From the NCBI GenBank assembly GCA_002069125.1, contig MVZN01000008.1, positions 5,643 through 69,642 of the forward strand: DNA of 64,000 nucleotides, given 5' to 3'. The notes below the pieces were generated by a model. That model saw only the letters and a list, made by a program, of their open reading frames with translations, had not been told where the DNA came from and made no database searches. The stretch is from Spirochaetes bacterium ADurb.BinA120 (lineage in GTDB: Bacteria > Spirochaetota > UBA4802 > UBA5368). The position numbers were made by a program, and so were the translations under genes. Positions 4,425-59,829 of the stretch are shown in pieces. How positions within the stretch are numbered: position 1 is the first letter of the stretch; each line of letters begins with the position of its first letter.

Positions 4425-5228
4425 TCAGAAATATCTGCGATAGAAACGCTCGATGCCCTGCCAGATCCTTCGTCTGAGGTCGAGCATGCGCACGTTGTTT
4501 ACGGAGAGATCGTCGTGGCGGAAGTAGCGGTCGTTGATGAAAAGGGCGCGCGATACGGAAAGCCTAAGGAGCGGGATTTTCCCGCGCCCGTGCCGGAGCA
4601 TGATGTGTCCGTCGAACCGCGGGCTGTTGAGCGCAAAGGGTTCGCCAACTGTCCATTCCTCGCTTCCGAGCGATTTCCTCATGGATTCCAGCAGGCCGCG
4701 CGCCGTCTCGTCGGGGCACGTGCGCACCGGCTCGCCGCGGTCCATGACGGTATTGCTTACGGTAACGATGGGGCGCGGCCTTCCCGGATCCGCCGCGTGT
4801 TTGGGGCCCACCGCCATCATCGTGTGGCAATCGAGTACAAGGCGCACCCTGCCGCTCTCGAGTATCTTTTCGACGGTTTGATGGAATCCGTGGTAATAGC
4901 GCATAAGGAGATTGTTTATCGCGATCTCGTCGGGGAACACGCCGGGGGGGTAGATGGGAACGCCCGAGCTCGTTCGCTTTTTTACAACCCCGTCGTCGGT
5001 GCGGGGAGCGAGCGAAAGGTGGTGGCGGTCCAGGTCCACAAACAGGCGGTTTATCTGCGAGTCTATGCGCGCGGCGACGCTATCGCCGAAGTCGAAAAGC
5101 ACGTCGGCGCAGGCGTCGGACTCGAAAAACAGTTCGAAGTCACCCAGAATCTCGTACCCGGCGAGTTCGTCCGGCACGCTCCGTCCGGCGTGCGGCACGA
5201 GGATGAGGATGGGAAGGCCGCTCTTCAT
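4425..5228 (-). CDS. N-formylglutamate amidohydrolase family protein
   Basis: Size of 267 aa and overall pattern (LILVPHAGR...LDCHTM) resemble the FGase family. The long plus-strand ORF opposite it (4173..5342) is Arg-rich antisense. Confidence 0.5.
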   Translation of the reverse strand: MKSGLPILILVPHAGRSVPDELAGYEILGDFELFFESDACADVLFDFGDSVAARIDSQINRLFVDLDRHHLSLAPRTDDGVVKKRTSSGVPIYPPGVFPDEIAINNLLMRYYHGFHQTVEKILESGRVRLVLDCHTMMAVGPKHAADPGRPRPIVTVSNTVMDRGEPVRTCPDETARGLLESMRKSLGSEEWTVGEPFALNSPRFDGHIMLRHGRGKIPLLRLSVSRALFINDRYFRHDDLSVNNVRMLDLRRRIWQGIERFYRRYF

Positions 5229-5531
5229 GGCGCCCGGAGACCGCCCTCCGGGCGCACGCGCGCGCGTCCGGGCCGCGAACGGAAGGGGCCTTCCGCGGCG
5301 GGGAATGATATTTCGTGTTTTTCGTTCATTTTATTAACTTGAGCCGCACGGTAAATTAATTCGGGTATGGCAAAATACTATTGACGGAGCGGGCGGTAAA
5401 GCGTTAATTCGATTGAAGTACGCTCTCCGGACAGGCTGCGGATTTGACCGGCGCGAACGGCGTCCCACACCGGGCGATAGGAGAGCTGAGAGGGCGCCGG
5501 TATCCGGCGTGACGGGGACCAGGAGATCGCG

Positions 5532-6038
5532 ATGCGCGCATACAAGACCGACGAAATTGGGGAGGCAATCCTCGAGATACTTAGCGCCAACGCCAAGGCG
5601 ACAGCGGAGGACATCGCGCGCCAGCTCGACGTGGCCGAGAGCAGGGTGTCGAAATACATAAAGCAGTTCGAGAAGGACAGGATAATCCTGAGATACAAAA
5701 CCCATGTCAACTGGATGAGGGTCCGCAACAACCAGGTGCGCGCGCTCATCGAGGTGAAGGTCATCCCGGAGCGCGGCGTGGGTTTCGACGCGGTCGCGGA
5801 ATCCATCTACCGCTATCCGGAGGTGTCGTCGGTTTTCCTTCTGTCCGGAAGCTACGATCTTCTTGTGCAGGTCGAGGGACCGACCCTTCAAGAGGTTTCG
5901 CTCTTCGTATCGGAAAAGCTCGCCACAATCAAGAACGTGCAGTCCACGGTCACGCATTTCCTCCTTAAAAAATACAAGGAGGACGGTGATGTGCTCGTCG
6001 ATCAGCCGGAATCCAAGCGCCTGCCCATGAGTTTTTAG
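5532..6038 (+). CDS. Lrp/AsnC family transcriptional regulator
   Basis: N-terminal HTH (ILEILSANAKATAEDIARQLDVAESRVSKYIKQFE) followed by an AsnC-type ligand-binding domain; 168 aa. Confidence 0.75.
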   Translation: MRAYKTDEIGEAILEILSANAKATAEDIARQLDVAESRVSKYIKQFEKDRIILRYKTHVNWMRVRNNQVRALIEVKVIPERGVGFDAVAESIYRYPEVSSVFLLSGSYDLLVQVEGPTLQEVSLFVSEKLATIKNVQSTVTHFLLKKYKEDGDVLVDQPESKRLPMSF

Positions 6039-6041
6039 GCC

Positions 6042-6710
6042 GTGGCGTCCATAGCGGCGATCTACCGCGCGCTTTACGCATGCCATGGCCCCCAGCGCTG
6101 GTGGCCCGGCGAAACCGATTTCGAGATCGCTATAGGCGCGATCCTCACCCAGAACGTCTCGTGGGCCAATGTCGAGAAGGCCATCCGAAGGCTGAAGGAG
6201 GAAGGGCTTCTCAACCCGAAAGCCCTGCACCGGGAGCCGGCCGAAAGCCTGGCCCAGCTCATACGACCCACGGGCTACTACAACCAGAAGGCCAAAAAGC
6301 TAAGAAATTTTCTGGACTGGTTTTCCGCATACGGCTATTCGTTCGCCCGGCTGGGCGGGATCGATACCGGTCGCCTTAGAAAGGAGCTTCTTGGGATAAA
6401 TGGGGTGGGCCCGGAAACGGCCGACTCTATTCTTTTGTATGCGCTAAAGCGGCGGGTTTTTGTGGTGGATGCCTACACCATGCGGATCTTCGGCCGGATT
6501 GGCGTGCTTGGGGGCGGCGAGGGCTACGCGGAGACGCAGAGTCTTTTTCATCGGCGGTTCGCCGGTGATGTCGCCGAGTACAACGAGTACCACGCCCTCA
6601 TCGTAAATCACGGCAAGTCCGTTTGTAAAAAGAAGCCCCTGTGCGCGGAATGCTGCCTGGCGCGGTATTGCGCCTTTACGGCTTCCCGCCGGGTTTTTTT
6701 ATCCGGATAA
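6042..6710 (+). CDS. HhH-GPD superfamily DNA glycosylase, endonuclease III-like
   Basis: Helix-hairpin-helix-GPD signature (LLGINGVGPETADSILLYAL...VVDAYTMRIF) and a C-terminal Cys cluster (CKKKPLCAECCLARYC). Confidence 0.7.
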   Translation: MASIAAIYRALYACHGPQRWWPGETDFEIAIGAILTQNVSWANVEKAIRRLKEEGLLNPKALHREPAESLAQLIRPTGYYNQKAKKLRNFLDWFSAYGYSFARLGGIDTGRLRKELLGINGVGPETADSILLYALKRRVFVVDAYTMRIFGRIGVLGGGEGYAETQSLFHRRFAGDVAEYNEYHALIVNHGKSVCKKKPLCAECCLARYCAFTASRRVFLSG

Positions 6711-47187: not shown

Positions 47188-47550
47188 TCAGCTTTTGTCA
47201 AGCGTTTTAATTCTGGTCTCCAGGTCGCATTCCATAGTAAATACTATGACCCTCTCGCCGGTGACGGTGCTGATATCGGTGTGCATGCTGCGGCAGGCGC
47301 AGCCGGTGATTTCCGCGAGTATCGCCGAGAGCATGTCTCGCGCCTCCTCGATGAGCCTGATGCGCACCTTCTTGATCAGGTCAAGGCCTTCACCGCTACT
47401 GGTGAGCCGGCTTTCGGCGCGCGTCATGACCCCCTTCATCCTCACGATCACCATGTCTTCGATGATATAGGTGCGCGTCTCGATGGGGCCGCGCCCCATG
47501 TATTCCTTTTCGAACTTGATCAGCGCCTCGCTGATCTCCGCCTCGATCAT
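47188..47550 (-). CDS. DUF2294 family protein
   Basis: About 120-aa conserved pattern (EISEALIKFEKEYMGRGP...DISTVTGERVIVF). Start at the internal Met MIEAEIS. Confidence 0.5.
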   Translation of the reverse strand: MIEAEISEALIKFEKEYMGRGPIETRTYIIEDMVIVRMKGVMTRAESRLTSSGEGLDLIKKVRIRLIEEARDMLSAILAEITGCACRSMHTDISTVTGERVIVFTMECDLETRIKTLDKS

Positions 47551-47789
47551 GCCCCTGCTTTTGGTCTTCACGGCCCCGTTCCTGTGCCTCGTACGGCGCA
47601 AACCGCCGTCGATATTCTCCGATTCACTTAGCACATTCCCGCCCGCGCCGTCCAGTTATTTTCCTTCCGAGGTGAGATTTGGGATATTCCGGAACGGCCG
47701 TCCGTGCGCATTCCGGATTCGAAAAACACCGTGCGGCCGGATGATATTCGCGCCCCGGCTCTGATGTATACGATTGACGCGATCGCCTG

Positions 47790-48105: not shown

Positions 48106-48309
48106 CTACGGTTGTCGCGTGATAGACGTGTGAGGCGCAACAATCACAAGGCCGCCCGCCACGGGTACCGTAAGCTCTGCTTTAGGTCTTGTCGGTTTGC
48201 GTACAGCCGTCCGCGGCGCTTATGGGCCTGTCTTGTTGAACGGGTCGTAATTGCGGGCGGCGCTGTGCGCGACCGACAACGGAAATTCTAATGCGTGGAG
48301 TGTTATGGT

Positions 48310-50316
48310 ATGAATCAGAAACCTGGCGTGTGCACCTTCTGCGGCACGGGTTGCGGCCATTTCATCGGCGTCGAAAACAACAGGATCGCGCGTGTCTATC
48401 CCTCCCAAAACCATCCCGTAAGCAAGGGGCGTCTTTGCGTTCGGGGCTGGAACATCCACGAACTCCTCGATACTCCCGATAGAATTAAAAAACCGCTGAT
48501 TCGTTCCGACGGCCCTTTCGTGGAGGCGTCCTGCGACGAGGCGGTGGGCCGACTAATTGACTCGTTGAAGAAGTACCCTCCGGAATCCATCGGCTTTCTC
48601 GCCTCGCCCCGCTCCTCCAACGAGGAGCAGTATCTTCTAATGAAGCTCGCCCGTTCGGTCTTCGGGACCAACAACATCTGCTTGGACAGCGAATCGGGCC
48701 ATCGCGCAAGCCTCAATGTTCTGCACGCGGGTACCGGTATGGCTGGAATGCTCGGCTCGATCGAGGAGATATGCGGGGCGGAATTCATCCTTGTAGCCGG
48801 GATAGACATCACCCGGCAGAACCCCATAATAGGAAGCGAGATCCACATGGCCGCGCGGGCGGGGGCCATGGTGGTGACCATGGACAGCCGGCGCACCCAG
48901 ATCGCCAGGCTATCGAAGAAATTTTTACAGGTGAGGCCCGGCGCAAACAAGCTTGCCGTCCTCGCCCTGGCTAAAACCATATATGAGGAAAATCTCCACG
49001 ACCCATCGTTCCTCGAAGCGCATACGGAAGGCTTCGAGGGGTTCCGAAGGGCTTTCGGAAAGCTATCCGAAAACGAATTATACGAAAAGACCGGCCTTAA
49101 GGCCGACGAGATAAAAACGGTCGCCCGCCATCTGGCCAGGGCGAAATCGGCGATGGTATTCTTCTCCTCCGGCATCTCGGGCCTCGATGAGGACACAATA
49201 GGGTATATCTACAATCTCTTTCTTCTGGCCGGAAAAATCGGAAAGGAGGGCTGCGGCGTAAATCCGATAGCCGGGCTCAACAACCTTCAGGGCGGCTACG
49301 ATATGGGGCTGGCCCCGGACCTCCTCACCGGATTCCAGCCGCTTGCCGACGCGGCGACGGCTAAAAAATTCGAAAAGGAGTGGGGGACGGCACTTCCCTC
49401 CTCACCGGGAAAGCCGATCTACCGATCGCTGGCGGACCAGGCATCGGAACTGAAGGCGCTTGTCGTGGTTGACCACGACGAGGGGATAGTGCGCTACGCC
49501 GACGCCATCAAAAAGCTCGACTTCGTGGCATACATAGGGGCCTTCAAGAACCCATTTGCGGAGTACGCTCATGTGGTGCTTCCAATCGCCACCTACGTAC
49601 AGGAGGACGCCACATTCACGAACGCGGAACGGCGCATACAGCTCTCAACGAAAAAGATCGAACCGGAAGACGGGCTGCTCCCCGGATGGAAACTGTATTC
49701 GATGATAGCCGCGAAGGCCGGCAGGGCATGGAAATACGCAAAGGTATCGGAGGTGATGGACGAGATCGCCCGGCTTACTCCTGCGTACGCCGGAGTTACG
49801 CACGCAAAGCTTGCCGGCGGTTTCGGCCTGCAGTGGCCTGTGGACGATAAAAACCCGGGCGGAACCAGGCGCTTCGACCTCGCCAAAGCAGGGCGAAAGC
49901 TCGCTTTTTACGGGGTGAGCGATGTGTTTGAGGCCCCATCGGCCGACGACCGGTTTCCATTCCTCCTCATGGTGGGCAAGGCGCAGCATTTCTGGCACCA
50001 GAACAACCTCATGAAAAAGACGCACATCCCCATGCGCGAATATAACGCGACACTGATGGATTATCCCGAAGGCTACGTCGAGATATGCCCGCAAAGCGCG
50101 AAGGAGATAGGGGTGCGCGACCGCTGGCCTGTGCGAGTGGTATCGCCTCACGGGGAGATGCGCGTGTCGGCTAGGGTTTCGGACGACGTGAGCCCCAATA
50201 CGGCCTATGCGCCCTACTTTGTACAGGAAATGATATCGCGTTTTTTGCTGGGGCACACCGAGGTTCTAAGGCAGGGAGAAGACGCAACGATTCCAGTAAG
50301 GATTGAGAAGGTATGA
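48310..50316 (+). CDS. Molybdopterin oxidoreductase, FdhF (formate dehydrogenase H)-like catalytic-type subunit lacking the Cys/Sec Mo ligand
   Basis: N-terminal 4Fe-4S motif CTFCGTGCG, MGD-binding regions and C-terminal Mo-bisPGD domain. Aligning the E. coli FdhF segment NNVDCCARVUHGPSVAGLHQSVG with NNICLDSESGHRASLNVLHAGTG puts Gly at the U140 position. There is no in-frame TGA. GTG 48295 is an alternative start. Confidence 0.75.
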   Translation: MNQKPGVCTFCGTGCGHFIGVENNRIARVYPSQNHPVSKGRLCVRGWNIHELLDTPDRIKKPLIRSDGPFVEASCDEAVGRLIDSLKKYPPESIGFLASPRSSNEEQYLLMKLARSVFGTNNICLDSESGHRASLNVLHAGTGMAGMLGSIEEICGAEFILVAGIDITRQNPIIGSEIHMAARAGAMVVTMDSRRTQIARLSKKFLQVRPGANKLAVLALAKTIYEENLHDPSFLEAHTEGFEGFRRAFGKLSENELYEKTGLKADEIKTVARHLARAKSAMVFFSSGISGLDEDTIGYIYNLFLLAGKIGKEGCGVNPIAGLNNLQGGYDMGLAPDLLTGFQPLADAATAKKFEKEWGTALPSSPGKPIYRSLADQASELKALVVVDHDEGIVRYADAIKKLDFVAYIGAFKNPFAEYAHVVLPIATYVQEDATFTNAERRIQLSTKKIEPEDGLLPGWKLYSMIAAKAGRAWKYAKVSEVMDEIARLTPAYAGVTHAKLAGGFGLQWPVDDKNPGGTRRFDLAKAGRKLAFYGVSDVFEAPSADDRFPFLLMVGKAQHFWHQNNLMKKTHIPMREYNATLMDYPEGYVEICPQSAKEIGVRDRWPVRVVSPHGEMRVSARVSDDVSPNTAYAPYFVQEMISRFLLGHTEVLRQGEDATIPVRIEKV

Positions 50317-52262: not shown

Positions 52263-52778
52263 ATGAAGGAACAGGCGGTGAACATCGTGGACGACATCCG
52301 CAGCGCACTCTCGCGAAAGACCTGCATCGTGGGCGTGGGGAACACCCTGCTCGGCGATGATGGCGCGGGCGTGCTTCTCGTCGAGACGCTCAGGCGCGAC
52401 GGCGCGGGCGAACGCGTACACTTAGTCAACGCGGAGGATATCATCGAGAGTCATGCTTTCGAAATCGCGGAAGGCGACTGGGGCACCGTGATAGTGGTGG
52501 ACGCGGTGAGTTTCGGCGGAAGCCCCGGAGACGTAATGTTCGGGGACTTTTCTGAGACAGGCGATTTGCTGAACGATTTCTCGACGCATAAGCTTTCGCT
52601 CAGGCTTTCCGAGTCGATCTGGCGGCAAAGCGGAAAAAAGACCTTTCTCCTCGGCATCCAGCCGGAGGCCGTGGATTTCGGCGAGGGGCTCTCGGAGGCC
52701 GTGCGCAGGAGCGTCGATACGCTCGGCGGCATACTACTCGAAGCAGTTAAACAGCACCCCGAAGGAGCGTGTGTATGA
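52263..52778 (+). CDS. [NiFe]-hydrogenase maturation endopeptidase (HycI/HyaD family)
   Basis: GVGNTLLGDDGAGV motif and 171 aa. Confidence 0.8.
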   Translation: MKEQAVNIVDDIRSALSRKTCIVGVGNTLLGDDGAGVLLVETLRRDGAGERVHLVNAEDIIESHAFEIAEGDWGTVIVVDAVSFGGSPGDVMFGDFSETGDLLNDFSTHKLSLRLSESIWRQSGKKTFLLGIQPEAVDFGEGLSEAVRRSVDTLGGILLEAVKQHPEGACV

Positions 52779-54634
52779 GTGACCTTTATGGAAAACTGAT
52801 TCTCGCGATGGCGATACTCCTCTGTTCGGCGGTCGTTGTGCCGTTTATCGCCGAAAAACGCAAGCTGGCGGGCTGGCTCAACTTCATCTTCGTTGCGGTG
52901 GCGGGCGCCATCCTCCTTTCGATCAGCTACAGCGTGATATTCGTGAAGTCCCTTCCGTCGCGGCTCGTTTCGGTGGGCCCTCTGGATATCTACTTTCTGC
53001 TGGACGGCTTTTCAGGGTTTTTCCTGGGGATAATTTCGCTCATGGCGATCGTAAGCGCGTTCTATTCGATAGAATACATGGAGCATTACGGCGATTACGG
53101 CCTCAGGAGCTACTACGCCAATTATCCAATTTTCGTACTGGGCATGGCGGGCATCGTTACGGTCGACGATCTTACTACGGGCTTTTCCATCGCATGGCAG
53201 GCGATGACCATTACGAGCTATTTTCTCGTGCGCTTCGAACATCGAAAAAAAGAGATCGTAAAGGCCGCCAACAAGTACCTCGTCCTCATGGAGCTTGCAT
53301 GGCTCTTCATAGTGATCGCCGCCCTCGCGGCGGGAAGCTCCATGGGCGATTCGGTGCACTCGGTCACCCGCCTCATCGGCGAGACCGGGGGCGCGCTTCC
53401 CTATCTCATCTACGGACTCGTCTTCCTGGGGTTCGGCTTTAAGGCCGCGGTCTTTCCGTTCGGACAGATGTGGCTGCCGGACGCGCACTCCATCGCCCCT
53501 TCGCCCATAAGCGCGCTCCTTTCGGGGGTGATGATAAAGACCGGCGTCTATGGGATCATCCGATCGTTTTTCTGGATGGTGCCGCACTCCGATACCTTTC
53601 ACTTCAGCGGGGCCTTCTGGGGCGCGCTCATCGCCTCCTTCGGCGTGGTCACGCTCTTTATCGGCACGGTGCAGTCCATGAAGCAGAGCCAGTCGAAGCG
53701 GCTGCTGGCTTATTCCTCGATAGGGCAGGTGGGCTATATCATCTTCGGAATCGGCGCCGCCCTCTTCATGGTAAACGCCGAGAGCGCCGCGCTTAAAATG
53801 CTCGGCCTCATAGCGCTCGTCGGGGTGGTGTATCACATACTCAATCACGCGGTGTTCAAGGGGCTGCTCTTTCTTACAAGCGGCAGCGTGCTCTACAGCA
53901 CCGGGACCAAGGACCTCAACAGGTTAGGCGGGCTTATAAACCTCATGCCGGTCACCGCGTTTGTCGCCGGCATAGCCTCCCTGTCCATCTCGGGGGTCCC
54001 TCCGTTCAGCGGTTTCGTGAGCAAATGGACGCTTGTGTCCACTTCGCTTCTTGCCGGAAGCGAGGTGCTGTTCCTTGTCATCTTCGGCATCGTGGCGCTC
54101 TTTACGAGCGCGGTGACGCTTGCGTGTTATGTGAAATTTTTTGGCATGACCTTCACCTCGGCGGGGGCCGAGTGGGGGGTGGGCAGGGAGGTCAGGGAGG
54201 TCCCCGCGGGCATGCTTATCCCCAAGCTCTTTCTTACGGCGCTGTGCCTGCTCCAGGGGCTCATCCCCTTCTTCTACTTCCAGACCATAATAGGCATATT
54301 CGCGGGTTCCGGGGGCTCCCTCATTTCGGCGGCTTTCAGGAACCTGAACGTGCAGGGCCACGTATTCAACTCGGCCATGGGCGTGTCGGTGGGAATTCCG
54401 GGGCTTTCCGCCGTCTCGTCGATCGCGGTTCCCGCGGTGCTTCTTGCGGTTTTCGCGGCGGCGTTCGTCGTCGTAGCTTTTTTAAGAAAGTCCGGCGGAT
54501 CGAAGGAACGCGAGGTCCCGACATGGCTCTGCGGTTATCAGGACCTGCACGATAAAAACAGGTACCGCGACAAGAGCATGTTCGCGGCGCTAAAAAACCT
54601 TCTGTATTGGACCGGCGGAAACGTAAAGGAATAA
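52775..54634 (+). CDS. Hydrogenase membrane subunit, HycC/HyfB (NuoL/antiporter-like) family
   Basis: About 14 TM helices with the NuoL/MrpA-like core. The ATG at 52775 has a GGAG RBS and overlaps the protease stop. Confidence 0.8.
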   Translation: MSDLYGKLILAMAILLCSAVVVPFIAEKRKLAGWLNFIFVAVAGAILLSISYSVIFVKSLPSRLVSVGPLDIYFLLDGFSGFFLGIISLMAIVSAFYSIEYMEHYGDYGLRSYYANYPIFVLGMAGIVTVDDLTTGFSIAWQAMTITSYFLVRFEHRKKEIVKAANKYLVLMELAWLFIVIAALAAGSSMGDSVHSVTRLIGETGGALPYLIYGLVFLGFGFKAAVFPFGQMWLPDAHSIAPSPISALLSGVMIKTGVYGIIRSFFWMVPHSDTFHFSGAFWGALIASFGVVTLFIGTVQSMKQSQSKRLLAYSSIGQVGYIIFGIGAALFMVNAESAALKMLGLIALVGVVYHILNHAVFKGLLFLTSGSVLYSTGTKDLNRLGGLINLMPVTAFVAGIASLSISGVPPFSGFVSKWTLVSTSLLAGSEVLFLVIFGIVALFTSAVTLACYVKFFGMTFTSAGAEWGVGREVREVPAGMLIPKLFLTALCLLQGLIPFFYFQTIIGIFAGSGGSLISAAFRNLNVQGHVFNSAMGVSVGIPGLSAVSSIAVPAVLLAVFAAAFVVVAFLRKSGGSKEREVPTWLCGYQDLHDKNRYRDKSMFAALKNLLYWTGGNVKE

Positions 54635-54665: not shown

Positions 54666-56339
54666 ATGCCAGGCATTGAAGAGATCAAAAACGGCTTGAA
54701 GAAGGGTTTTAAGGACGCCGTCGTCTCGGTCGAGGAGCAGAACCCGACGCGGATGTTCGTTGATATAAAAAGCGCCAAGGTGCGCGATGTTTCCAACGCG
54801 ATCGTCGCGATGGGCGGGCGCTATCTTGTAAGCGTGGGCTACGACAATATCGCGCGTGACGGCACGCTGGGGATGATCCACACCTTCGGCTTCGACCGCG
54901 ACGGCATTTATCTGGCCCTTCGCACGTCGGTGCCCGAATCGAAGCCCGAGATGGACTCCATAACGCCGGATATTCCAAACGCCGGCTGGTCCGAGCGGGA
55001 ATATATGGACCTGTTGGGGATGAGGTTTTCCGGGCACCCCAAACCGAAGAGGCTCGTTCTTGCCGACGACTGGCCCGAGGGCGTGCATCCCCTTCGAAAG
55101 GACATCCCCTGGAACCTCATGCCGCCGGCGGCGGAGGACGTCGCCTACCAACTCGACGAGTGCCCCGAGGGCTGCAGTATAGTCCCGCTCGGGCCGTATC
55201 ATCCCACCCTGCACGAGCCGGAGCACTTCGCCATCTACGTCGATGGGGAGACAGTAAAGGGGTGCGATTACCGCGGTTTTATGACGCACCGCGGAATCGA
55301 AAAGCTGTGCCAGACGCAGCTTACGTACAATGAGGTGCCGTTCGTCGCGGAGCGCATCTGCGGCATCTGCGGCTCGGTCCACGCCACCAGCTATTCGCAG
55401 GCGGTTGAGCTTGCGGGCGGCATAAAAATTTCCCGCAGGGCCGAGTACATCCGCACCATAATGCTCGAGATCGAGCGCATACACTCGCACCTATTGTGGC
55501 TTGGGGTCGCAGGCCACCTCATTGGTTTCGACACGGTCTTCATGCAGTCGTGGCGCATTCGCGAGCCCGTCATGTGGCTCGGAGAGAGGATCACCGGAAA
55601 CAGGAAGACCTATGGGATGATCGTTATCGGCGGAGTGCGCCGGGACATTACGGACGAAATGAAAGACGATATACGGAATGTGATCGGGACGATCGAAAAG
55701 GAGCTTCTGACCGTTCAGAAGGCGATACAGGGCGACACGGCGATTCACAGGCGAACAAGGGGCGTCGGTTACATCTCCACCGATGATACGAAGCTCTGGA
55801 GCCTGGTAGGCCCGGTCGCCAGGGCGCGGAACGTGGACATCGACGTTCGCCGCGACTACCCGTACGCCGCCTACGATGAGATGAAGTTCGACGTTCCGGT
55901 CTTCGATTCAAACGACGTGTGGGCCACCGTGCTGGTTCGCCTGGTCGAGACCTTCGAGGCGATCAAGATCATACGCCAGTGCCTGGACAAAATGCCGAAC
56001 GACGGCCCGGTTCTTACCGAGCTCGATGCGCCCATCCCGGCGCTGAAGCACGGCCTGGCGGCGGTGGAGGCCCCGCGCGGCGAGGTGGTGCACTATGTCA
56101 TCACCGGCGAAAAGAACGCCCCCGAGCGCTGGCGGGTGCGCGCCCCTACCTATCCCAATCTCCAGGGGGTCCCGCTCATGCTTTTGAACAACCAGCTCGC
56201 CGACGTGCCGATCATCATCGGGAGCATAGACCCATGCTTTTCGTGCACCGACCGGATGGAGGTAGTGGACCTGAGATCGGGTGCGGCGAAGATCGCCTCG
56301 CAGGTCGAGCTCGAAGAGCTCTCACGGAACAAAAGGTAG
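54666..56339 (+). CDS. Group-4 [NiFe]-hydrogenase large subunit, fused NuoC-NuoD type (HycE-like)
   Basis: N-terminal NuoC-like domain, Ni-Fe site cysteines RICGICGSVH and DPCFSCTDR, and a C-terminal extension consistent with HycI-type processing. Confidence 0.85.
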   Translation: MPGIEEIKNGLKKGFKDAVVSVEEQNPTRMFVDIKSAKVRDVSNAIVAMGGRYLVSVGYDNIARDGTLGMIHTFGFDRDGIYLALRTSVPESKPEMDSITPDIPNAGWSEREYMDLLGMRFSGHPKPKRLVLADDWPEGVHPLRKDIPWNLMPPAAEDVAYQLDECPEGCSIVPLGPYHPTLHEPEHFAIYVDGETVKGCDYRGFMTHRGIEKLCQTQLTYNEVPFVAERICGICGSVHATSYSQAVELAGGIKISRRAEYIRTIMLEIERIHSHLLWLGVAGHLIGFDTVFMQSWRIREPVMWLGERITGNRKTYGMIVIGGVRRDITDEMKDDIRNVIGTIEKELLTVQKAIQGDTAIHRRTRGVGYISTDDTKLWSLVGPVARARNVDIDVRRDYPYAAYDEMKFDVPVFDSNDVWATVLVRLVETFEAIKIIRQCLDKMPNDGPVLTELDAPIPALKHGLAAVEAPRGEVVHYVITGEKNAPERWRVRAPTYPNLQGVPLMLLNNQLADVPIIIGSIDPCFSCTDRMEVVDLRSGAAKIASQVELEELSRNKR

Positions 56340-56349
56340 AGGAAAGACC

Positions 56350-57249
56350 ATGGATATCCTGACAGCCGTGATCAACGCGTTGATTTTCCTGGCGCTGGCC
56401 CCGTTTTTCGAGGGTGTCATACGAAGGCTTTACGCCAGGGTGCAGTCCCGAAAGGGGCCGCCGCTCATTCAGCCCTATCTCGATCTCCTTAAGCTTCTGG
56501 GCAAGGAGACGCTTTCGGCCGGAAACTGGGCCTTCAGGATCGCACCGATGATGGCGCTGGCGTCCATAATTACGGTGGTGTCGATAATGCCCCTCGGCTA
56601 CAGGGCGGGATACCTGACCCAATACGGCGACATCATCACGGTCATATATCTGCTCATGCTCGGCGGGGTGTCGGTGCTTCTGGGGGCGCTCTCCAGCAAA
56701 AACACATACGCCATGTTAGGGGCGAGCCGCGAGATGGTGACCATGATAATGATCGAGCCGGTCCTGGCCATGACCCTTATATTAGGCGCGCTGAAGGCGA
56801 AAAGCCTTGCGATCGACGCGAGCCTTTCGAGCTCCCTTAACGGCGCTTACGGCATTTCGATGGTGCTCATGCTCGTCGTTTTTCTGATGGCGCTCCAGGC
56901 CTTTGTGGCCAGGCAGCCCTTCGATATTGCCGAGGCGGAGGTCGAGATTATGGAGGGCCCGTTTATCGAATACAGCGGCCCGGGGCTGGCGCTCTTCAAG
57001 TATTACATGATGATTAAGCAGATGTTCTACGCGGCGCTTTTCGCTGCGGTGTTCGTTCCGCTGGTCAACACCGGCTATTATATCGTGGATGTGGCGGTCC
57101 AGCTTGTCGAGATTCTGGCGGTCTTCGTGCTGATCTCGCTCCTCGGCTCGACCAACCCGCGCTTGCGCATAGACCAGGCGGTTAAGTATTATGCCGTGCT
57201 AATATTCGCTTCGCTCGCGGCCGTGGGGCTTACGGCGTACGGAATTTAG
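56350..57249 (+). CDS. Hydrogenase membrane subunit HycD/NuoH-like
   Basis: Polytopic NuoH-family membrane protein with RKGPPLIQPYLDLLKLL. GAGGA RBS. Confidence 0.8.
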   Translation: MDILTAVINALIFLALAPFFEGVIRRLYARVQSRKGPPLIQPYLDLLKLLGKETLSAGNWAFRIAPMMALASIITVVSIMPLGYRAGYLTQYGDIITVIYLLMLGGVSVLLGALSSKNTYAMLGASREMVTMIMIEPVLAMTLILGALKAKSLAIDASLSSSLNGAYGISMVLMLVVFLMALQAFVARQPFDIAEAEVEIMEGPFIEYSGPGLALFKYYMMIKQMFYAALFAAVFVPLVNTGYYIVDVAVQLVEILAVFVLISLLGSTNPRLRIDQAVKYYAVLIFASLAAVGLTAYGI

Positions 57250-57376
57250 AAGATTAAAGATTAGAAGATTAGAAGATTGGAAGATTTGAAGATTATGGAT
57301 AGCATAATGACCGAATTCAAGACGAGTGATTTCCTGCTCAATAGATCTTTTAATCTTGAATCTTAAATCTTAAATC
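57250..57376 (+). repeat. Intergenic element A: direct array of 6 AAGATTA-like heptamers, roughly 47-nt spacer, inverted array of about 4 heptamers
   Basis: The direct array aagattaaagattagaagattagaagattggaagatttgaagatta (57250-57296) starts at the hycD-like stop. The inverted array atcttttaatcttgaatcttaaatcttaaatcc (57344-57376) ends just before the AAGGAG RBS of the hycF-like gene. Confidence 0.6.
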
Positions 57377-57390
57377 CAAGGAGAAACACC

Positions 57391-57936
57391 GTGTGGCTGA
57401 CAAGTAAGATAAAACAGGTATTCATGGTGGCCAAACCCGGAGTGGTGACGCTTCAATATCCTTTCGAGCCGCGCCCGGCTCCGGAGAATTTTCGGGGCCA
57501 GCCCTACTGGGACCATCACAAGTGCATTGGATGCGGCGGCTGTGCGGCCCACTGTCCGGCGCGCACCATACTTGTGCGGGACCTTTGCCAGGAGCTTCGA
57601 GTGATGGTCTACGACGGCTCCCGATGCACCTACTGCGGAAGGTGCGCCGACGTGTGTCCCGAGGACGCCATCACCATGACGGCAAGCTACGAGCTGGCTA
57701 CCGGCAGCAAAGAGGACGTAAACGAGACCATGGAGCTCTTTATGGCGACCTGTCAGCGATGCGGCCGTTGTTACGACCACGAGATCACCAACGCGATCGA
57801 TCGCATGTCGAGGATAGGGTTCAAGTACGACAGCCTGGAGATGAGGGCGGTGGTGCCGGTGAGCTCCGAGCAGTTCGACATGAAGCTGTATGAAAAAACC
57901 GAAAAAATCAAAAGGCCGGAAAAGGCGGGAGAATAG
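57391..57936 (+). CDS. Hydrogenase Fe-S subunit HycF/NuoI-like (two 4Fe-4S)
   Basis: CIGCGGCAAHCP and CTYCGRCADVCP ferredoxin motifs plus a further CQRCGRC. GTG start with an AAGGAG RBS. Confidence 0.8.
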   Translation: MWLTSKIKQVFMVAKPGVVTLQYPFEPRPAPENFRGQPYWDHHKCIGCGGCAAHCPARTILVRDLCQELRVMVYDGSRCTYCGRCADVCPEDAITMTASYELATGSKEDVNETMELFMATCQRCGRCYDHEITNAIDRMSRIGFKYDSLEMRAVVPVSSEQFDMKLYEKTEKIKRPEKAGE

Positions 57937-57938
57937 CC

Positions 57939-58469
57939 ATGCTTGCCAACCTGATCAAAAAGGCGTTTCCCAGATCCCTGTGGGTTTATCATTGCAACTC
58001 GGGAGCGTGCAACGGCTGCGACATCGAGATCCTGAACGTGCTGACCCCTTATTACGATATCGAGCGTTTCGGCATGAAGCTTGTGGGCTCGCCCCGGCAC
58101 GCCGATGTCATGCTCATTTCCGGCGCCGTGACGAGACCGACTCTTCCGATAGTCAAGAAGGCCTATGAAGCGATTCCCGCCCCGAAACTTGTCTTCGGAG
58201 TTGGTTCGTGCGCCGTGGGCGGGGGCTGCTGGTTCGACTGCTACAATGTTACGGGCGGCGCGGACAAGGCCGTGCCGATCGATTATTACATTCCCGGCTG
58301 CCCGCCGCGTCCGGAGGCGATTATCTACGGGGTGGCGCTCGCGCTTGGACTTGTCGAAAAGAAGGTCGCCCCCATAGAGCTCAAGCAGATGGAGTTTCCG
58401 ATCGACATGTACGAGCGGAACAAGGCCTGGGAAGAGCGCAATGTCATATACGAGTTGATTAAAGATTAA
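57939..58469 (+). CDS. Group-4 [NiFe]-hydrogenase small subunit HycG/NuoB-like
   Basis: NuoB-family cysteines (CNGCD; GSCAVGGG; CPPRP). Confidence 0.85.
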   Translation: MLANLIKKAFPRSLWVYHCNSGACNGCDIEILNVLTPYYDIERFGMKLVGSPRHADVMLISGAVTRPTLPIVKKAYEAIPAPKLVFGVGSCAVGGGCWFDCYNVTGGADKAVPIDYYIPGCPPRPEAIIYGVALALGLVEKKVAPIELKQMEFPIDMYERNKAWEERNVIYELIKD

Positions 58470-58578
58470 TAGATTAAAGATTATAAGATTAAAGATAATC
58501 GGCGGCATGACGCCTGGTTTGCCGGAAAGGACTTGCCGCCAGGCGAATGTCTTAATCTTGAACTCATAATCTTTAATA
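58457..58578 (+). repeat. Intergenic element B: direct array of about 5 AAGATTA heptamers overlapping the hycG-like stop, roughly 51-nt GC-rich spacer hairpin, inverted array of about 2 heptamers
   Basis: Direct array ttgattaaagattaatagattaaagattataagattaaagataatc. The spacer ggcggcatgacgcctggtttgccggaaaggacttgccgccagg is self-complementary. Inverted array cttaatcttgaactcataatctttaata. Same design as element A. Confidence 0.6.
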
Positions 58579-58604
58579 CGCAATCCATAACCCTGGAGCG
58601 AGAC

Positions 58605-59006
58605 ATGGCAAAAAAGATACTCTTGGTTGATGACGACAGCGACCTGGTGGCCAGCCTTTCGCAGGCGCTTACAATGAATGGATATGAGGTGTCGGTTGCC
58701 TACAGCGGCGCCGAGGGCCTCGCGAGACTTCTTGAGGTAAGGCCGGACCTCATGATTCTCGACGTTATGATGGAGACCGACACCGCCGGGTTCGAAATGA
58801 CCTATCAGATCCGCGGTACGCGGCCCACGTCCAAATATCGAGACGTGAAGGACACCCCAATAATCATGCTGACAGCCATAAACCAGGTCACCAATTCCAG
58901 GTTCTCGCTAAACGAAGGCCAGAGCTTTCTTCCCGGCGTGAACGATTTCCTCACCAAACCGGTGAAGATCGACGAACTACTCGATAAGGTGAAAAAGCAG
59001 ATTTAG
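58605..59006 (+). CDS. Single-domain response regulator receiver (CheY-like)
   Basis: KILLVDDD...DLMILDVMM...KP receiver signature; 133 aa; no output domain. Confidence 0.8.
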   Translation: MAKKILLVDDDSDLVASLSQALTMNGYEVSVAYSGAEGLARLLEVRPDLMILDVMMETDTAGFEMTYQIRGTRPTSKYRDVKDTPIIMLTAINQVTNSRFSLNEGQSFLPGVNDFLTKPVKIDELLDKVKKQI

Positions 59007-59073
59007 CGGAAAAATGCCTTGCCCTCTGGGCGCCTCTGGTTTCACGATACTACACGTTATGGATAATCGTATA

Positions 59074-59103
59074 AGGGGATATCATTGGATATCCCCCTTT
59101 TCT
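59074..59103 (+). terminator. Candidate intrinsic terminator (ggggatatc-attg-gatatcccc followed by CTTTTCT)
   Basis: Perfect 9-bp stem with a 4-nt loop, about 70 nt after the receiver stop, followed by a T-rich tract. Confidence 0.45.
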
Positions 59104-59118
59104 ATGGCGGGCTATTCG

Positions 59119-59829
59119 ATGAAAATAAGGCATCTGGTATTCATCCTGCTTGTGGCGGTTGTCGCGGGCTCCCTGTACAACAGCCAGCGGCTGTACCACT
59201 GGTACCTCGCCGCGTATTACCAGCGCTTCCTCGGTGAAGATCGGGAAAAATCCATAGAAAGGGCGCGCTCGCTTTACAGGGATGAGCGCTATGAAGAGCT
59301 CGATGCCTATACCGGACGCATGAGGGTCCTCTACCCGGACAATTCCGACCTGCGCCGCCTGAAAGGGTTCGCGATGATTAAAACCGGCCGCGAATCGGAG
59401 GGGGCGCACATGGTTATATCCTCGTTGAGAAAGAACGAGGCCCTTCTTTCGGTTGCCAGTGCCATCGAAATATTGTTCAAGGAAGGGGAGTACGCGGACC
59501 TCGACGACATCATCTCCAGCCACGGGACCATGGGCGACCCGTATCTTCAATATATTCACGGCGTTTCGCTTTATCATGTCAAAAAATACGCTGAGGCGGA
59601 GCGGCGCCTTGCAGGAGCGTTGAGCGCCGGGAAACAGGATTACGACACGCTGTACTACCTTGGTCTGGCCCGTGAGAAAAACGGCAGAACGGTCGAGGCG
59701 CTCGCCGCGATCGAAAAGGCCTATGCGATAGACCCTATACGCCCCGAGGCCCGAAAGGCCCTGGTTCGTCTCTATCGAGTGACAAAACAATACGACAGGG
59801 CGGAAAGAATTCCGCGGAGGACACCATGA
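59119..59829 (+). CDS. TPR-repeat protein with N-terminal membrane anchor
   Basis: Hydrophobic N-terminus (LVFILLVAVVAGSL) and TPR repeats (YYLGLAREKNGRTVEAL). Start uncertain (59059, 59104 or 59119). The longer antisense ORF 59050..59790 was rejected. Confidence 0.5.
   Translation: MKIRHLVFILLVAVVAGSLYNSQRLYHWYLAAYYQRFLGEDREKSIERARSLYRDERYEELDAYTGRMRVLYPDNSDLRRLKGFAMIKTGRESEGAHMVISSLRKNEALLSVASAIEILFKEGEYADLDDIISSHGTMGDPYLQYIHGVSLYHVKKYAEAERRLAGALSAGKQDYDTLYYLGLAREKNGRTVEALAAIEKAYAIDPIRPEARKALVRLYRVTKQYDRAERIPRRTP

Follow-up and report, generated by a model that had tools for sequence, protein, structure and literature searches.

Organization of the hydrogenase locus

The window, i.e. the whole 64-kb stretch of DNA that was analysed, originates from an uncultured member of the Spirochaetota found in anaerobic digesters and carries an FHL-type [NiFe]-hydrogenase operon on its + strand. 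According to the NCBI annotation, proteins 93-95% identical to the small subunit come from Spirochaetota MAGs, and the identical small-subunit protein was found on many anaerobic-digester metagenome contigs. Two foldbacks built from AAGATTA-type heptamers are located in the distal part of the operon: element A between the HycD-like and HycF-like genes, and element B, the subject of this study, between the hycG-like gene and a receiver gene. The features of the locus, all on the + strand, are the following.

48295-50316, +: molybdopterin formate-dehydrogenase-like gene, first in operon order
next in operon order, +: Fe-S protein gene, FAD/NAD-binding protein gene, HycI-type protease gene
52769-54634, +: antiporter-like membrane subunit gene
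54666-56339, +: large [NiFe] subunit gene, a 30-kDa/49-kDa fusion
end at 57249, +: NuoH/HycD-like subunit gene, stop codon 57247-57249
57250-57377, +: element A, of the same plan as element B
57250-57295, +: 5' array of A, six units (AAGATTA AAGATTA g AAGATTA g AAGATTG g AAGATTT g AAGATTA)
57296-57344, +: spacer of A, with core TGGATAGCATAATGACCG at 57296-57313, homologous to the B-type spacer core
57345-57377, +: 3' array of A, inverted units (ATCTTTTAATCTTGAATCTTAAATCTTAAATCC)
57391-57936, +: HycF-like 2x[4Fe-4S] protein gene, GTG start at 57391, ribosome binding site (RBS) AAGGAG at 57378-57383
57939-58469, +: HycG/NuoB-like small subunit gene, with a PF01058 match (NuoB/HycG-type)
58455-58578, +: element B, foldback of ~125 nt
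58455-58498, +: 5' array of B, six direct units (TTGATTA AAGATTA at AGATTA AAGATTA t AAGATTA AAGATAA)
58467-58469, +: TAA stop codon of the hycG-like gene, inside the B array
58499-58550, +: spacer of B, 52 nt, comprising the core and a GC-rich hairpin region
58500-58517, +: spacer core of B, homologous to element A (CGGCGGCATGACGCCTGG)
58501-58546, +: GC-rich hairpin region of the B spacer (ggcggca/tgccgcc and cgcctgg/ccaggcg)
58551-58578, +: 3' array of B, inverted units (cTTAATCTTgaactcaTAATCTTTAATa; cttaatcttga...taatctttaata) that pair with the 5' array
58605-59006, +: receiver-only response-regulator gene, 3' of element B, PF00072, preceded by GGAG at 58595-58598
59075-59105, +: intrinsic terminator from a terminator scan, GGGGATATC-attg-GATATCCCC (hairpin 59075-59096) followed by a T-run

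The terminator at 59075-59105 would mark the end of the transcription unit, which would make A and B internal to the transcript. Scanning of the + strand revealed no promoter-like or terminator-like site within A or B, and both elements are therefore taken to be transcribed within the polycistronic mRNA. The orphan receiver (PF00072) and the intrinsic terminator (hairpin 59075-59096) that the earlier note had placed downstream of B were both found.

The position of a stable hairpin just 5' of the receiver gene could suggest an internal terminator or attenuator that cuts read-through into this gene, and an ATG at 58507, located in the conserved core of all B spacers, could suggest a small spacer ORF of 20 codons. 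Both ideas are highly improbable. The stem is not followed by a T-run and the scan gave no terminator-like site there; A and B were rejected as intrinsic terminators (GC-rich stems running straight into a T-run), as the scan gave no such site in either. The small ORF was rejected as well: the peptides encoded by A and B have only Met-Thr in common, an RBS is lacking, and the changes among the B copies are non-synonymous.

Structure and paralogy of elements A and B

Direct reading of element B confirmed the architecture described earlier, with an array running over the hycG-like stop codon, a GC-rich spacer and inverted heptamers. The array itself stands, while the count of five heptamers does not, as there are six when the degenerate first and last units are included. 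The first two units encode the C-terminus of the hycG-like protein (L-I-K-D-stop; final codons ttg att aaa gat taa at 58455-58469). AAGATTA arrays hold TAA stops in all three frames, so that any ORF entering such an array ends within a few codons, and no special cause has to be invoked for an array reaching over the stop codon. Tandem Repeats Finder reported 58457-58496 with a period of 7 and 5.4 copies, and also a period of 15. A repeat search showed that 58473-58492 is complementary to 58558-58577 (20 nt, 85%) and tied both B arms to those of element A. The two self-pairings proposed for the spacer, ggcggca/tgccgcc and cgcctgg/ccaggcg, are present, but they overlap and are thus mutually exclusive alternatives rather than a single helix. 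The B spacer also holds a small CYGG-N4-CCGG stem-loop that is conserved among the B elements of relatives.

The 5' array of element A begins directly 3' of the hycD-like stop codon, and its 3' array stops one base short of the RBS of the hycF-like gene. Tandem Repeats Finder reported 57246-57295 (period 8, 6.4 copies) and 57352-57376 (period 7, 3.6 copies). Six A- and B-type elements from the window and its relatives could be aligned over their full length. In both types a common core, GGATRGCATRATGACCG, of 17-18 nt follows directly 3' of the 5' array; aligning A with B to define such a core had been proposed earlier. Element A of the window shares 15/17 identities with B of L014 (0/2000 shuffles scored as high) and 15/18 identities with B of L011 (4/2000 shuffles), while B of the window has a 30-nt match with the B elements of L014 and L011 (0/2000 shuffles). 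The alignment and the shared core indicate that A and B, which flank the hycF/hycG pair, are true paralogues, as had been claimed, and that the whole unit of arms and spacer was copied once. An nhmmer search with an A+B profile found no third copy in the 64-kb window, L001-L014 and L135-L140 (±10 kb flanks of the relatives). Rfam 15 covariance models gave 0 matches up to E = 10 on either strand of 56900-59400.

The repeats do not reflect chance, in agreement with the earlier note. Elements A and B together contain 10 of the 12 exact AAGATTA matches in the 64 kb, and nine AAGATT/AATCTT hexamers lie within 130 nt, a count that never exceeded 3 when windows were locally shuffled (200 shuffles). 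The RNA of B (58440-58610) is predicted to fold with -47.8 kcal/mol (z = -3.70), and none of 200 shuffles was as stable; for A the values are -36.7 kcal/mol and z = -2.67. The A and B stems leave the RBSs of the downstream genes, which lie just 3' of them, free. A consensus fold of the six A/B elements has 22 pairs, almost all of them invariant, with a double change in 1/22. Covariation is uninformative here, because the arms consist of invariant repeats. The sense strand folds better than the antisense strand in 8/11 Spirochaetota elements, which are not independent of each other.

Evolutionary history of the elements

The comparison covered the orthologous operon of ten conspecific contigs (L001-L010) and of nine other lineages. 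Neighbour joining of the large subunit (HycE) gave the topology ((((window,(L011,L012)),(L013,L014)),L137),L151),L139,L135,L152, and all element-bearing loci fall in one clade of this tree. Four outgroups have array-free sequence at the two junctions, with lengths of 23/24 nt in L151, 25/41 nt in L135, 12/11 nt in L152 and 49-79/45 nt in L139/140. Since these outgroups harbour the same operon with short, element-free junctions, the operon does not need the element. The ingroup junctions measure 129-166 and 114-239 nt, compared to outgroup ranges of 12-79 and 11-45 nt. It is thus largely established that A and B are inserts of ~125 nt each into normally short intercistronic gaps, in one clade only.

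In each of the five ingroup lineages (L011-L014 and the species of the window; HycE proteins 90-98% identical), element B lies at the hycG-receiver junction. Its unit counts range from 4-8 forward and 3-5 reverse, the arms are not balanced, and its spacer is homologous but diverging; the L013 spacer reaches ~190 nt via extra hairpin modules. Only L012 and the species of the window have an AAGATTA-type element A. In L011, L013 and L014 it has been largely overwritten by a palindrome that is rich in GC and unrelated (GATTGAATCCCC...GGGGATTCGATT), and a remnant of its 3' array persists. L011 and L012 carry different inserts, yet their coding regions are near-identical (HycE 98%). In L137 both elements are half-decayed: no reverse units are left at site A and no forward units at site B.

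It had been argued that the idea of a functional element would fail if the elements were not conserved at the orthologous junctions of close relatives and gave no signal of RNA structure or protein binding. Instead, B is kept in close relatives and its transcribed strand can fold into a long stem. The impression of a designed feature, on the other hand, did not survive the comparison: outgroups lack the insert, A has been replaced in three of the five ingroup lineages, and unit numbers drift within the species.

The heptamer may have a local origin. Outgroup hycG genes end in ...AAGGATTAA/G, one base off the heptamer unit, and the hycG-like protein of the window has the same length and a near-identical C-terminus compared to the outgroups (LIKD vs LLKD). 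Plausibly, judging from these termini, slippage at the 3' end of hycG itself (AAGGATTAA) gave rise to the B array, and the element was later copied to site A.

Within the species, 3/10 conspecific contigs carry a 15-nt (two-unit) insertion in the 5' array of B, and four linked SNPs in the 3' array define two haplotypes. Polymorphism in element B (5 SNP columns and the indel in 129 nt) exceeds that of the surrounding sequence (1.0% over 19.8 kb); element A has one SNP within the species. The fast turnover of units, the within-species indel and the raised polymorphism in B would be expected of neutral or slightly deleterious repeats in a tolerant intercistronic spot, produced by polymerase slippage, to which heptamers are particularly liable, with the hairpin potential as a side effect of an inverted duplication. 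The unbalanced arms, the decay in L137, the replacement of A in L011, L013 and L014, the four outgroups that run the same operon without the element, and the lack of a covariation or strand signal point the same way. Moreover, heptamers are the most over-represented long simple-sequence repeats of prokaryotes, for which slippage has been proposed (PMC4692102; PMC4679880). However, both arms of B and a homologous spacer persisted while five lineages diverged, and the whole unit of arms and spacer core was copied to a second site. That the elements are functionless by-products of this kind is considered rather unlikely, though more probable than the other alternatives.

The same variability bears on the suggestion that the heptamers are binding sites of a DNA- or RNA-binding regulator, possibly the neighbouring receiver. 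Multimeric binders do use identical, regularly spaced short motifs, and a post-transcriptional binder has been proposed for TAACTGA heptamer arrays (PMC4679880). However, strains and species differ freely in how many units they have and in the spacing of these units (7, 8 or 15 nt), the sites lie within a transcription unit without a promoter nearby, and relatives free of arrays retain the receiver gene; this gene is found 3' of hycG in every relative examined, whether the element is present or absent. The adjoining protein is a receiver domain only (133 aa; PF00072 spans residues 5-130; no output domain), and a period of 7-8 nt is unlike response-regulator sites. A protein-binding array is therefore regarded as very improbable, and its use by the neighbouring receiver, as proposed in the earlier note, as unlikely.

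Comparison with known heptamer repeats and intercistronic stem-loops

The architecture of A and B is already known from other bacterial repeats, in which heptamer simple-sequence arrays form convergent pairs (PMC4692102; PMC2670836); this was overlooked in the earlier note. In Xanthomonas, 70-75 convergent GGGAATC array pairs occur per genome, kept between the same genes while their length varies (PMC4692102). Like A and B, the GGGAATC pairs of Xanthomonas and the GGGGAYT pairs of Nostoc consist of intergenic 7-nt tandem units (Rehm et al. 2015, PMC4692102). Many of these arrays form close opposite-strand pairs capable of stem-loop formation, again as in A and B, and keep their gene position while length and sequence vary (PMC4692102). 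They are transcribed and have no known function (PMC4692102). A and B share several features with such convergent arrays: at least three head-to-tail 7-nt units, a complementary array nearby and, for B, a kept gene position with varying unit numbers. Differences were also noted. The AT-rich AAGATTA unit, unlike those of Xanthomonas and Nostoc, allows no G-quadruplex; the spacers of A and B hold a conserved core common to both copies, unlike the Xanthomonas and Nostoc pairs; and two copies were seen in the 64-kb window and the flanks of the relatives, compared to ~180 per genome in Xanthomonas and Nostoc (PMC4692102).

In cyanobacteria, STRR (short tandemly repeated repetitive) heptamers located between hupS and hupL fold into hairpins, for which a role in transcript stability or translational coupling has been proposed, not shown (PMC2670836). 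Like A and B, the STRR hairpin thus separates two genes of a [NiFe]-hydrogenase operon (PMC2670836). The phylum, the repeat unit and the hydrogenase group differ (A and B belong to a group 4 FHL-type operon), and STRR families are highly dispersed genome-wide. TAACTGA repeats of Beggiatoaceae, Cyanobacteria and Bacteroidetes (PMC4679880) resemble the AAGATTA arrays in being intergenic and in holding stops in all frames. They often overlap the end of the upstream ORF and lie just 5' of the next start codon, as is the case here; they are nearly always direct only (inverted in 1/170) and have been proposed as translational-regulator sites rather than hairpins (PMC4679880). A heptamer foldback of the STRR or convergent-array type has not previously been described in Spirochaetota or in an FHL-type operon.

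The REP of malE-malF is an intercistronic stem-loop that stabilizes mRNA, and ORF-less intervening sequences of ~100-150 nt are known in 23S rRNA. The intervening sequence in the 23S rRNA of Coxiella burnetii has strain-variable tandem heptamers in its stem and is cut by RNase III (PMC4990558). It shares with A and B an extended stem formed by heptamer-bearing terminal inverted repeats, inside an otherwise continuous transcript (PMC4990558). Unlike the 23S intervening sequences, which are located in helix 25 or 45, A and B reside in mRNA and contain no ORF for an S23p/four-helix-bundle protein, and their cleavage by RNase III is putative. In the cip-cel operon, intergenic stem-loops set subunit stoichiometry (PMC4423207). 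The action proposed for A and B, a stem-loop that may protect upstream mRNA or define processing sites and thereby let the genes of an operon differ in expression, is the same as that of REP/BIME elements and of the cip-cel stem-loops (PMC4423207). Unlike REP/BIME, A and B have no REP consensus and show no sign of hundreds of copies, and their arms are arrays of a 7-nt unit instead of a unique palindrome. The earlier description of B as REP-like therefore does not hold in the family sense: there is no REP-type unit, and there are only two copies in the 64 kb and the flanks of the relatives. REP/BIME membership was rejected on the basis of the heptamer-array arms and the two copies seen, compared to the RAYT-linked imperfect palindromes of 20-40 nt in that family, which follow a consensus and number tens to hundreds.

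Similar foldbacks and four-helix-bundle genes in other phyla

A pattern scan for three AGATTA units, with one genome per species, yielded at least 120 loci in many phyla; among the matches listed, most are single arrays and none comes from the species of the window. A forward array followed by a short spacer and a complementary array was found at ~19 loci among the matches listed. GGAGATT/AATCTCC foldbacks occur in Chloroflexota MAGs (L069, L086, L090, L117, L129 and others), and paired arrays were also found in a Saprospiraceae MAG and an Elusimicrobiota MAG. There are up to three or four of these foldbacks per 8 kb, with stems of up to 85 pairs. Their neighbouring genes in other phyla are co-directional in ~9 cases, convergent in 3 and divergent in 2 (among the matches listed). 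Such a co-directional share is estimated to be close to usual for intergenic sites, and enrichment in a particular gene context was rejected. For Chloroflexota foldbacks between co-directional genes, where the direction of transcription is known, the sense strand folds better in 3/9 only. Together with the non-independence of the 8/11 Spirochaetota elements this led to rejection of a G-U based, RNA-specific strand signal as evidence; a class-wide signal of this type is absent. The order within pairs is strongly biased, with AGATT-then-AATCT in 32 cases vs the reverse in 2 (array-level counts among the matches listed), and pairing alone does not predict such polarity. Pure slippage does not predict it either, which argues against A and B as mere slippage by-products.

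In L092 (Muribaculaceae), (AGATTAC)5 and (GTAATCT)11 flank an ORF of 117 aa located between ruvC and rlmN, which encodes a TIGR02436/PF05635 four-helix-bundle protein. The S23p ORF found in rRNA intervening sequences belongs to this family as well, and the family resembles Avd, a DGR protein (PMC10053308). Three further homologues of the L092 protein were chosen by protein similarity and contig size alone. All three (L141, L144, L148) are single-gene operon inserts between inverted heptamer arrays, the unit of which differs from case to case: ATTAATA arrays between genes for an aminotransferase and a hexapeptide transferase, ATGAATA/TATTCAT arrays between brxB and brxC, and AATTGTA-type arrays between hsdS and hsdR. 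The array arms around the four-helix-bundle genes are 20-56 nt long and 86-100% complementary. L125 provides a fifth four-helix-bundle gene within inverted heptamer arrays. No description of heptamer arrays flanking S23p/four-helix-bundle genes outside rRNA was found in the literature.

A further explanation for A and B is a non-autonomous mobile cassette, MITE- or IVS-like, with the heptamer arrays as its ends, in which A and B would be ORF-less derivatives of cassettes with an Avd/S23p-like four-helix-bundle gene. In agreement with this, A and B are paralogous over their full length and lie 1.2 kb from each other, presence and absence are clean when compared to the short empty sites, and L011 and L012 bear different inserts in near-identical coding surroundings. 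The intra-operon four-helix-bundle genes between inverted heptamer arrays in L092, L141, L144, L148 and L125, and the polarity bias of array pairs among the matches listed, would fit as well. However, a third copy is lacking in the 64-kb window and the ±10 kb of the relatives, and no transposase is known to be linked to such arrays. The repeat ends are AT-rich and show no recognizable target-site duplication, and the filled sites have diverged too far from the empty ones for a comparison. The resemblance of the heptamer unit to the native hycG terminus suggests a local origin. Furthermore, neither tblastn nor a six-frame hmmsearch found a four-helix-bundle gene in the window or the related loci, so that architecture is the only tie between the four-helix-bundle cassettes and A/B. 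Of the traits of MITEs, inverted arms are present, whereas dispersed copies and a cognate autonomous element were not found (nhmmer hits at the A and B sites only, in the window, L001-L014 and L135-L140). A mobile origin is thus improbable. A wider proposition is that heptamer foldbacks constitute one cross-phylum class of insertion cassettes that settle in rRNA helices as well as between cistrons, some of them carrying an Avd/S23p-like four-helix-bundle gene and others not. RNase III would excise them from the host transcript or cleave within them, and their polarity would be due to dedicated propagation or recognition instead of slippage alone. A and B would be ORF-less members of this class; the proposition is equally improbable.

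Possible role in the hydrogenase operon

Element B is genuine: a hairpin-forming insert that is specific to one lineage and represents a known but poorly understood kind of repeat, not a new regulatory device. The explanation tentatively preferred here is a slippage-driven heptamer foldback, transcribed within the operon, that acts, if at all, as an intercistronic mRNA stem-loop. Replication slippage adds and removes units of the arrays. Because both arms repeat one and the same unit, pairing survives the gain or loss of units in either arm. In the polycistronic mRNA, pairing of the two arrays would give an imperfect stem, ~30 bp long and rich in AU, with a GC-rich hairpin at its tip. Such a stem may serve as a substrate for RNase III or as a barrier to 3'-5' exonucleases. 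The stems of A and B could then divide the mRNA into three parts (fdh...hycD; hycF-hycG; receiver gene), the levels of which could differ, and may replace the tight coupling that is present in the relatives. The effect of the element is probably modest and dispensable, rather than that of an essential control device. Weak or no selection fits the outgroups without the insert, the overwriting of A in three ingroup lineages and the half-decay in L137.

The insert explains two intercistronic gaps that are ten times longer than in the relatives, and segment-wise processing of the hydrogenase mRNA is predicted in an abundant spirochaete of digesters. If the proposed cassette class were real, A and B would have broken up a tightly coupled hydrogenase operon, the mRNA of which would now be processed as three separate segments. 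Inverted heptamer arrays recur in the same kind of place in Spirochaetota, Chloroflexota, Bacteroidota, Elusimicrobiota, Xanthomonas and cyanobacteria, and they also bracket Avd-like four-helix-bundle genes in defence and polysaccharide operons. One experimental system for such a stem would clarify the long-noted, unexplained over-representation of heptamers in bacteria.

Hairpin inserts and half-arrays in the hydrogenase operon

The hycD-hycF junction, which carries element A in the window, was found to differ between relatives. In three close relatives (L011, L013, L014) it harbours a different, GC-rich palindrome, GATTGAATCCCC...GGGGATTCGATT, with a folding energy of -52 to -80 kcal/mol, followed by a remnant of an AATCTTG array. 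L139, an outgroup member of the Spirochaetota, displays a further distinct hairpin at this position, CCCCTCTCC-ccgg-AGGAGAGGGG. Hairpin-forming inserts have been gained repeatedly at this junction.

GC-rich palindrome with AATCTTG remnant
L011:9285-9440
L013:9320-9440
L014:9283-9440

L137 and L138 represent the next lineage out. At the hycD-hycF junction (L137:3399-3430) they retain forward AAGATTG units only, and at the junction of hycG and the receiver gene (L137:4565-4620) reverse AATCTTG units only. The hycF-hycG pair is therefore bracketed by two half-arrays, which form a long-range inverted repeat around it.

L011 and L012 both encode small subunit P0001 and share 98.2% HycE identity. 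The inserts of these near-identical operons differ at both junctions, and the elements and receiver protein of L012 are closer to those of the window species than to those of L011. This pattern suggests recombination between lineages inside the hydrogenase operon.

In outgroups, the small-subunit gene has a native 3' end (...TTGAAGGATTAG / ...CTCAAGGATTAA) that differs from the repeat unit AAGATTA by a single base. In the window, the small subunit is unchanged in length (176 aa), with LIKD vs. LLKD. The gene's own terminus may have been the seed of the AAGATTA array.

Small-subunit gene 3' ends compared
window:58455-58469
L135:4520-4531 (outgroup)
L152:4520-4531 (outgroup)

Flanks of the operon

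Some 280 nt upstream of the operon's first gene lies a palindromic, AT-rich stretch containing ATATT/ATATTATATTTATC repeats (window:47958-48015), with an MpsC-like gene in divergent orientation (47188-47634) on its other side. This stretch is probably the promoter/operator region. At the other end, the receiver gene after hycG is followed in outgroups by genes for a Cache-HAMP histidine kinase and a hybrid kinase. In L151 and the window clade, its downstream neighbours encode a TPR protein and an ADP-forming acyl-CoA-synthetase-like protein. The receiver's neighbouring kinases have therefore been lost in this clade.

Regions downstream of the receiver gene in outgroups
L135:5109-8165
L139:5073-8139
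L152:5048-6109

Inverted arrays in other bacteria

Four-helix-bundle genes of TIGR02436/PF05635 (S23p/Avd-like family) occur as operon-internal single-gene inserts of ~350 nt (ruvC-rlmN, a polysaccharide operon, brxB-brxC, hsdS-hsdR). Each is flanked on both sides by inverted heptamer arrays, with a different heptamer unit per locus and arms of 20-56 nt showing 86-100% complementarity. Three of the five loci were selected by protein similarity only. A literature search found no paper on inverted heptamer arrays bracketing such genes.

Four-helix-bundle gene with inverted heptamer arrays
L092:3999-4487
L141:1463-1906
L144:1479-1893
L148:1423-1972
L125:694-3530

In metagenome-assembled genomes of Chloroflexota (Caldilinea and others), (GGAGATT)n ... 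(AATCTCC)n foldbacks occupy gaps between co-directional genes. Among the matches listed, an 8-kb stretch holds as many as 3-4 of them, and the longest stem has 85 pairs (-121 kcal/mol). A Shine-Dalgarno-like GGAG is repeated along the 5' arm.

Chloroflexota foldbacks
L086:2649-2697, 5571-5663, 6491-6555
L069:3739-3835, 5178-5300
L090:4076-4293
L117:1583-1632
L129:6666-6747

AGATT-type arrays with a complementary array at most 250 nt away were counted among the matches listed (at least 120 loci, L015-L134): 32 array counts had the order AGATT-then-AATCT vs. 2 with the reverse order. The purine-rich arm is therefore 5' on either strand, a polarity that is not explained by pairing alone.
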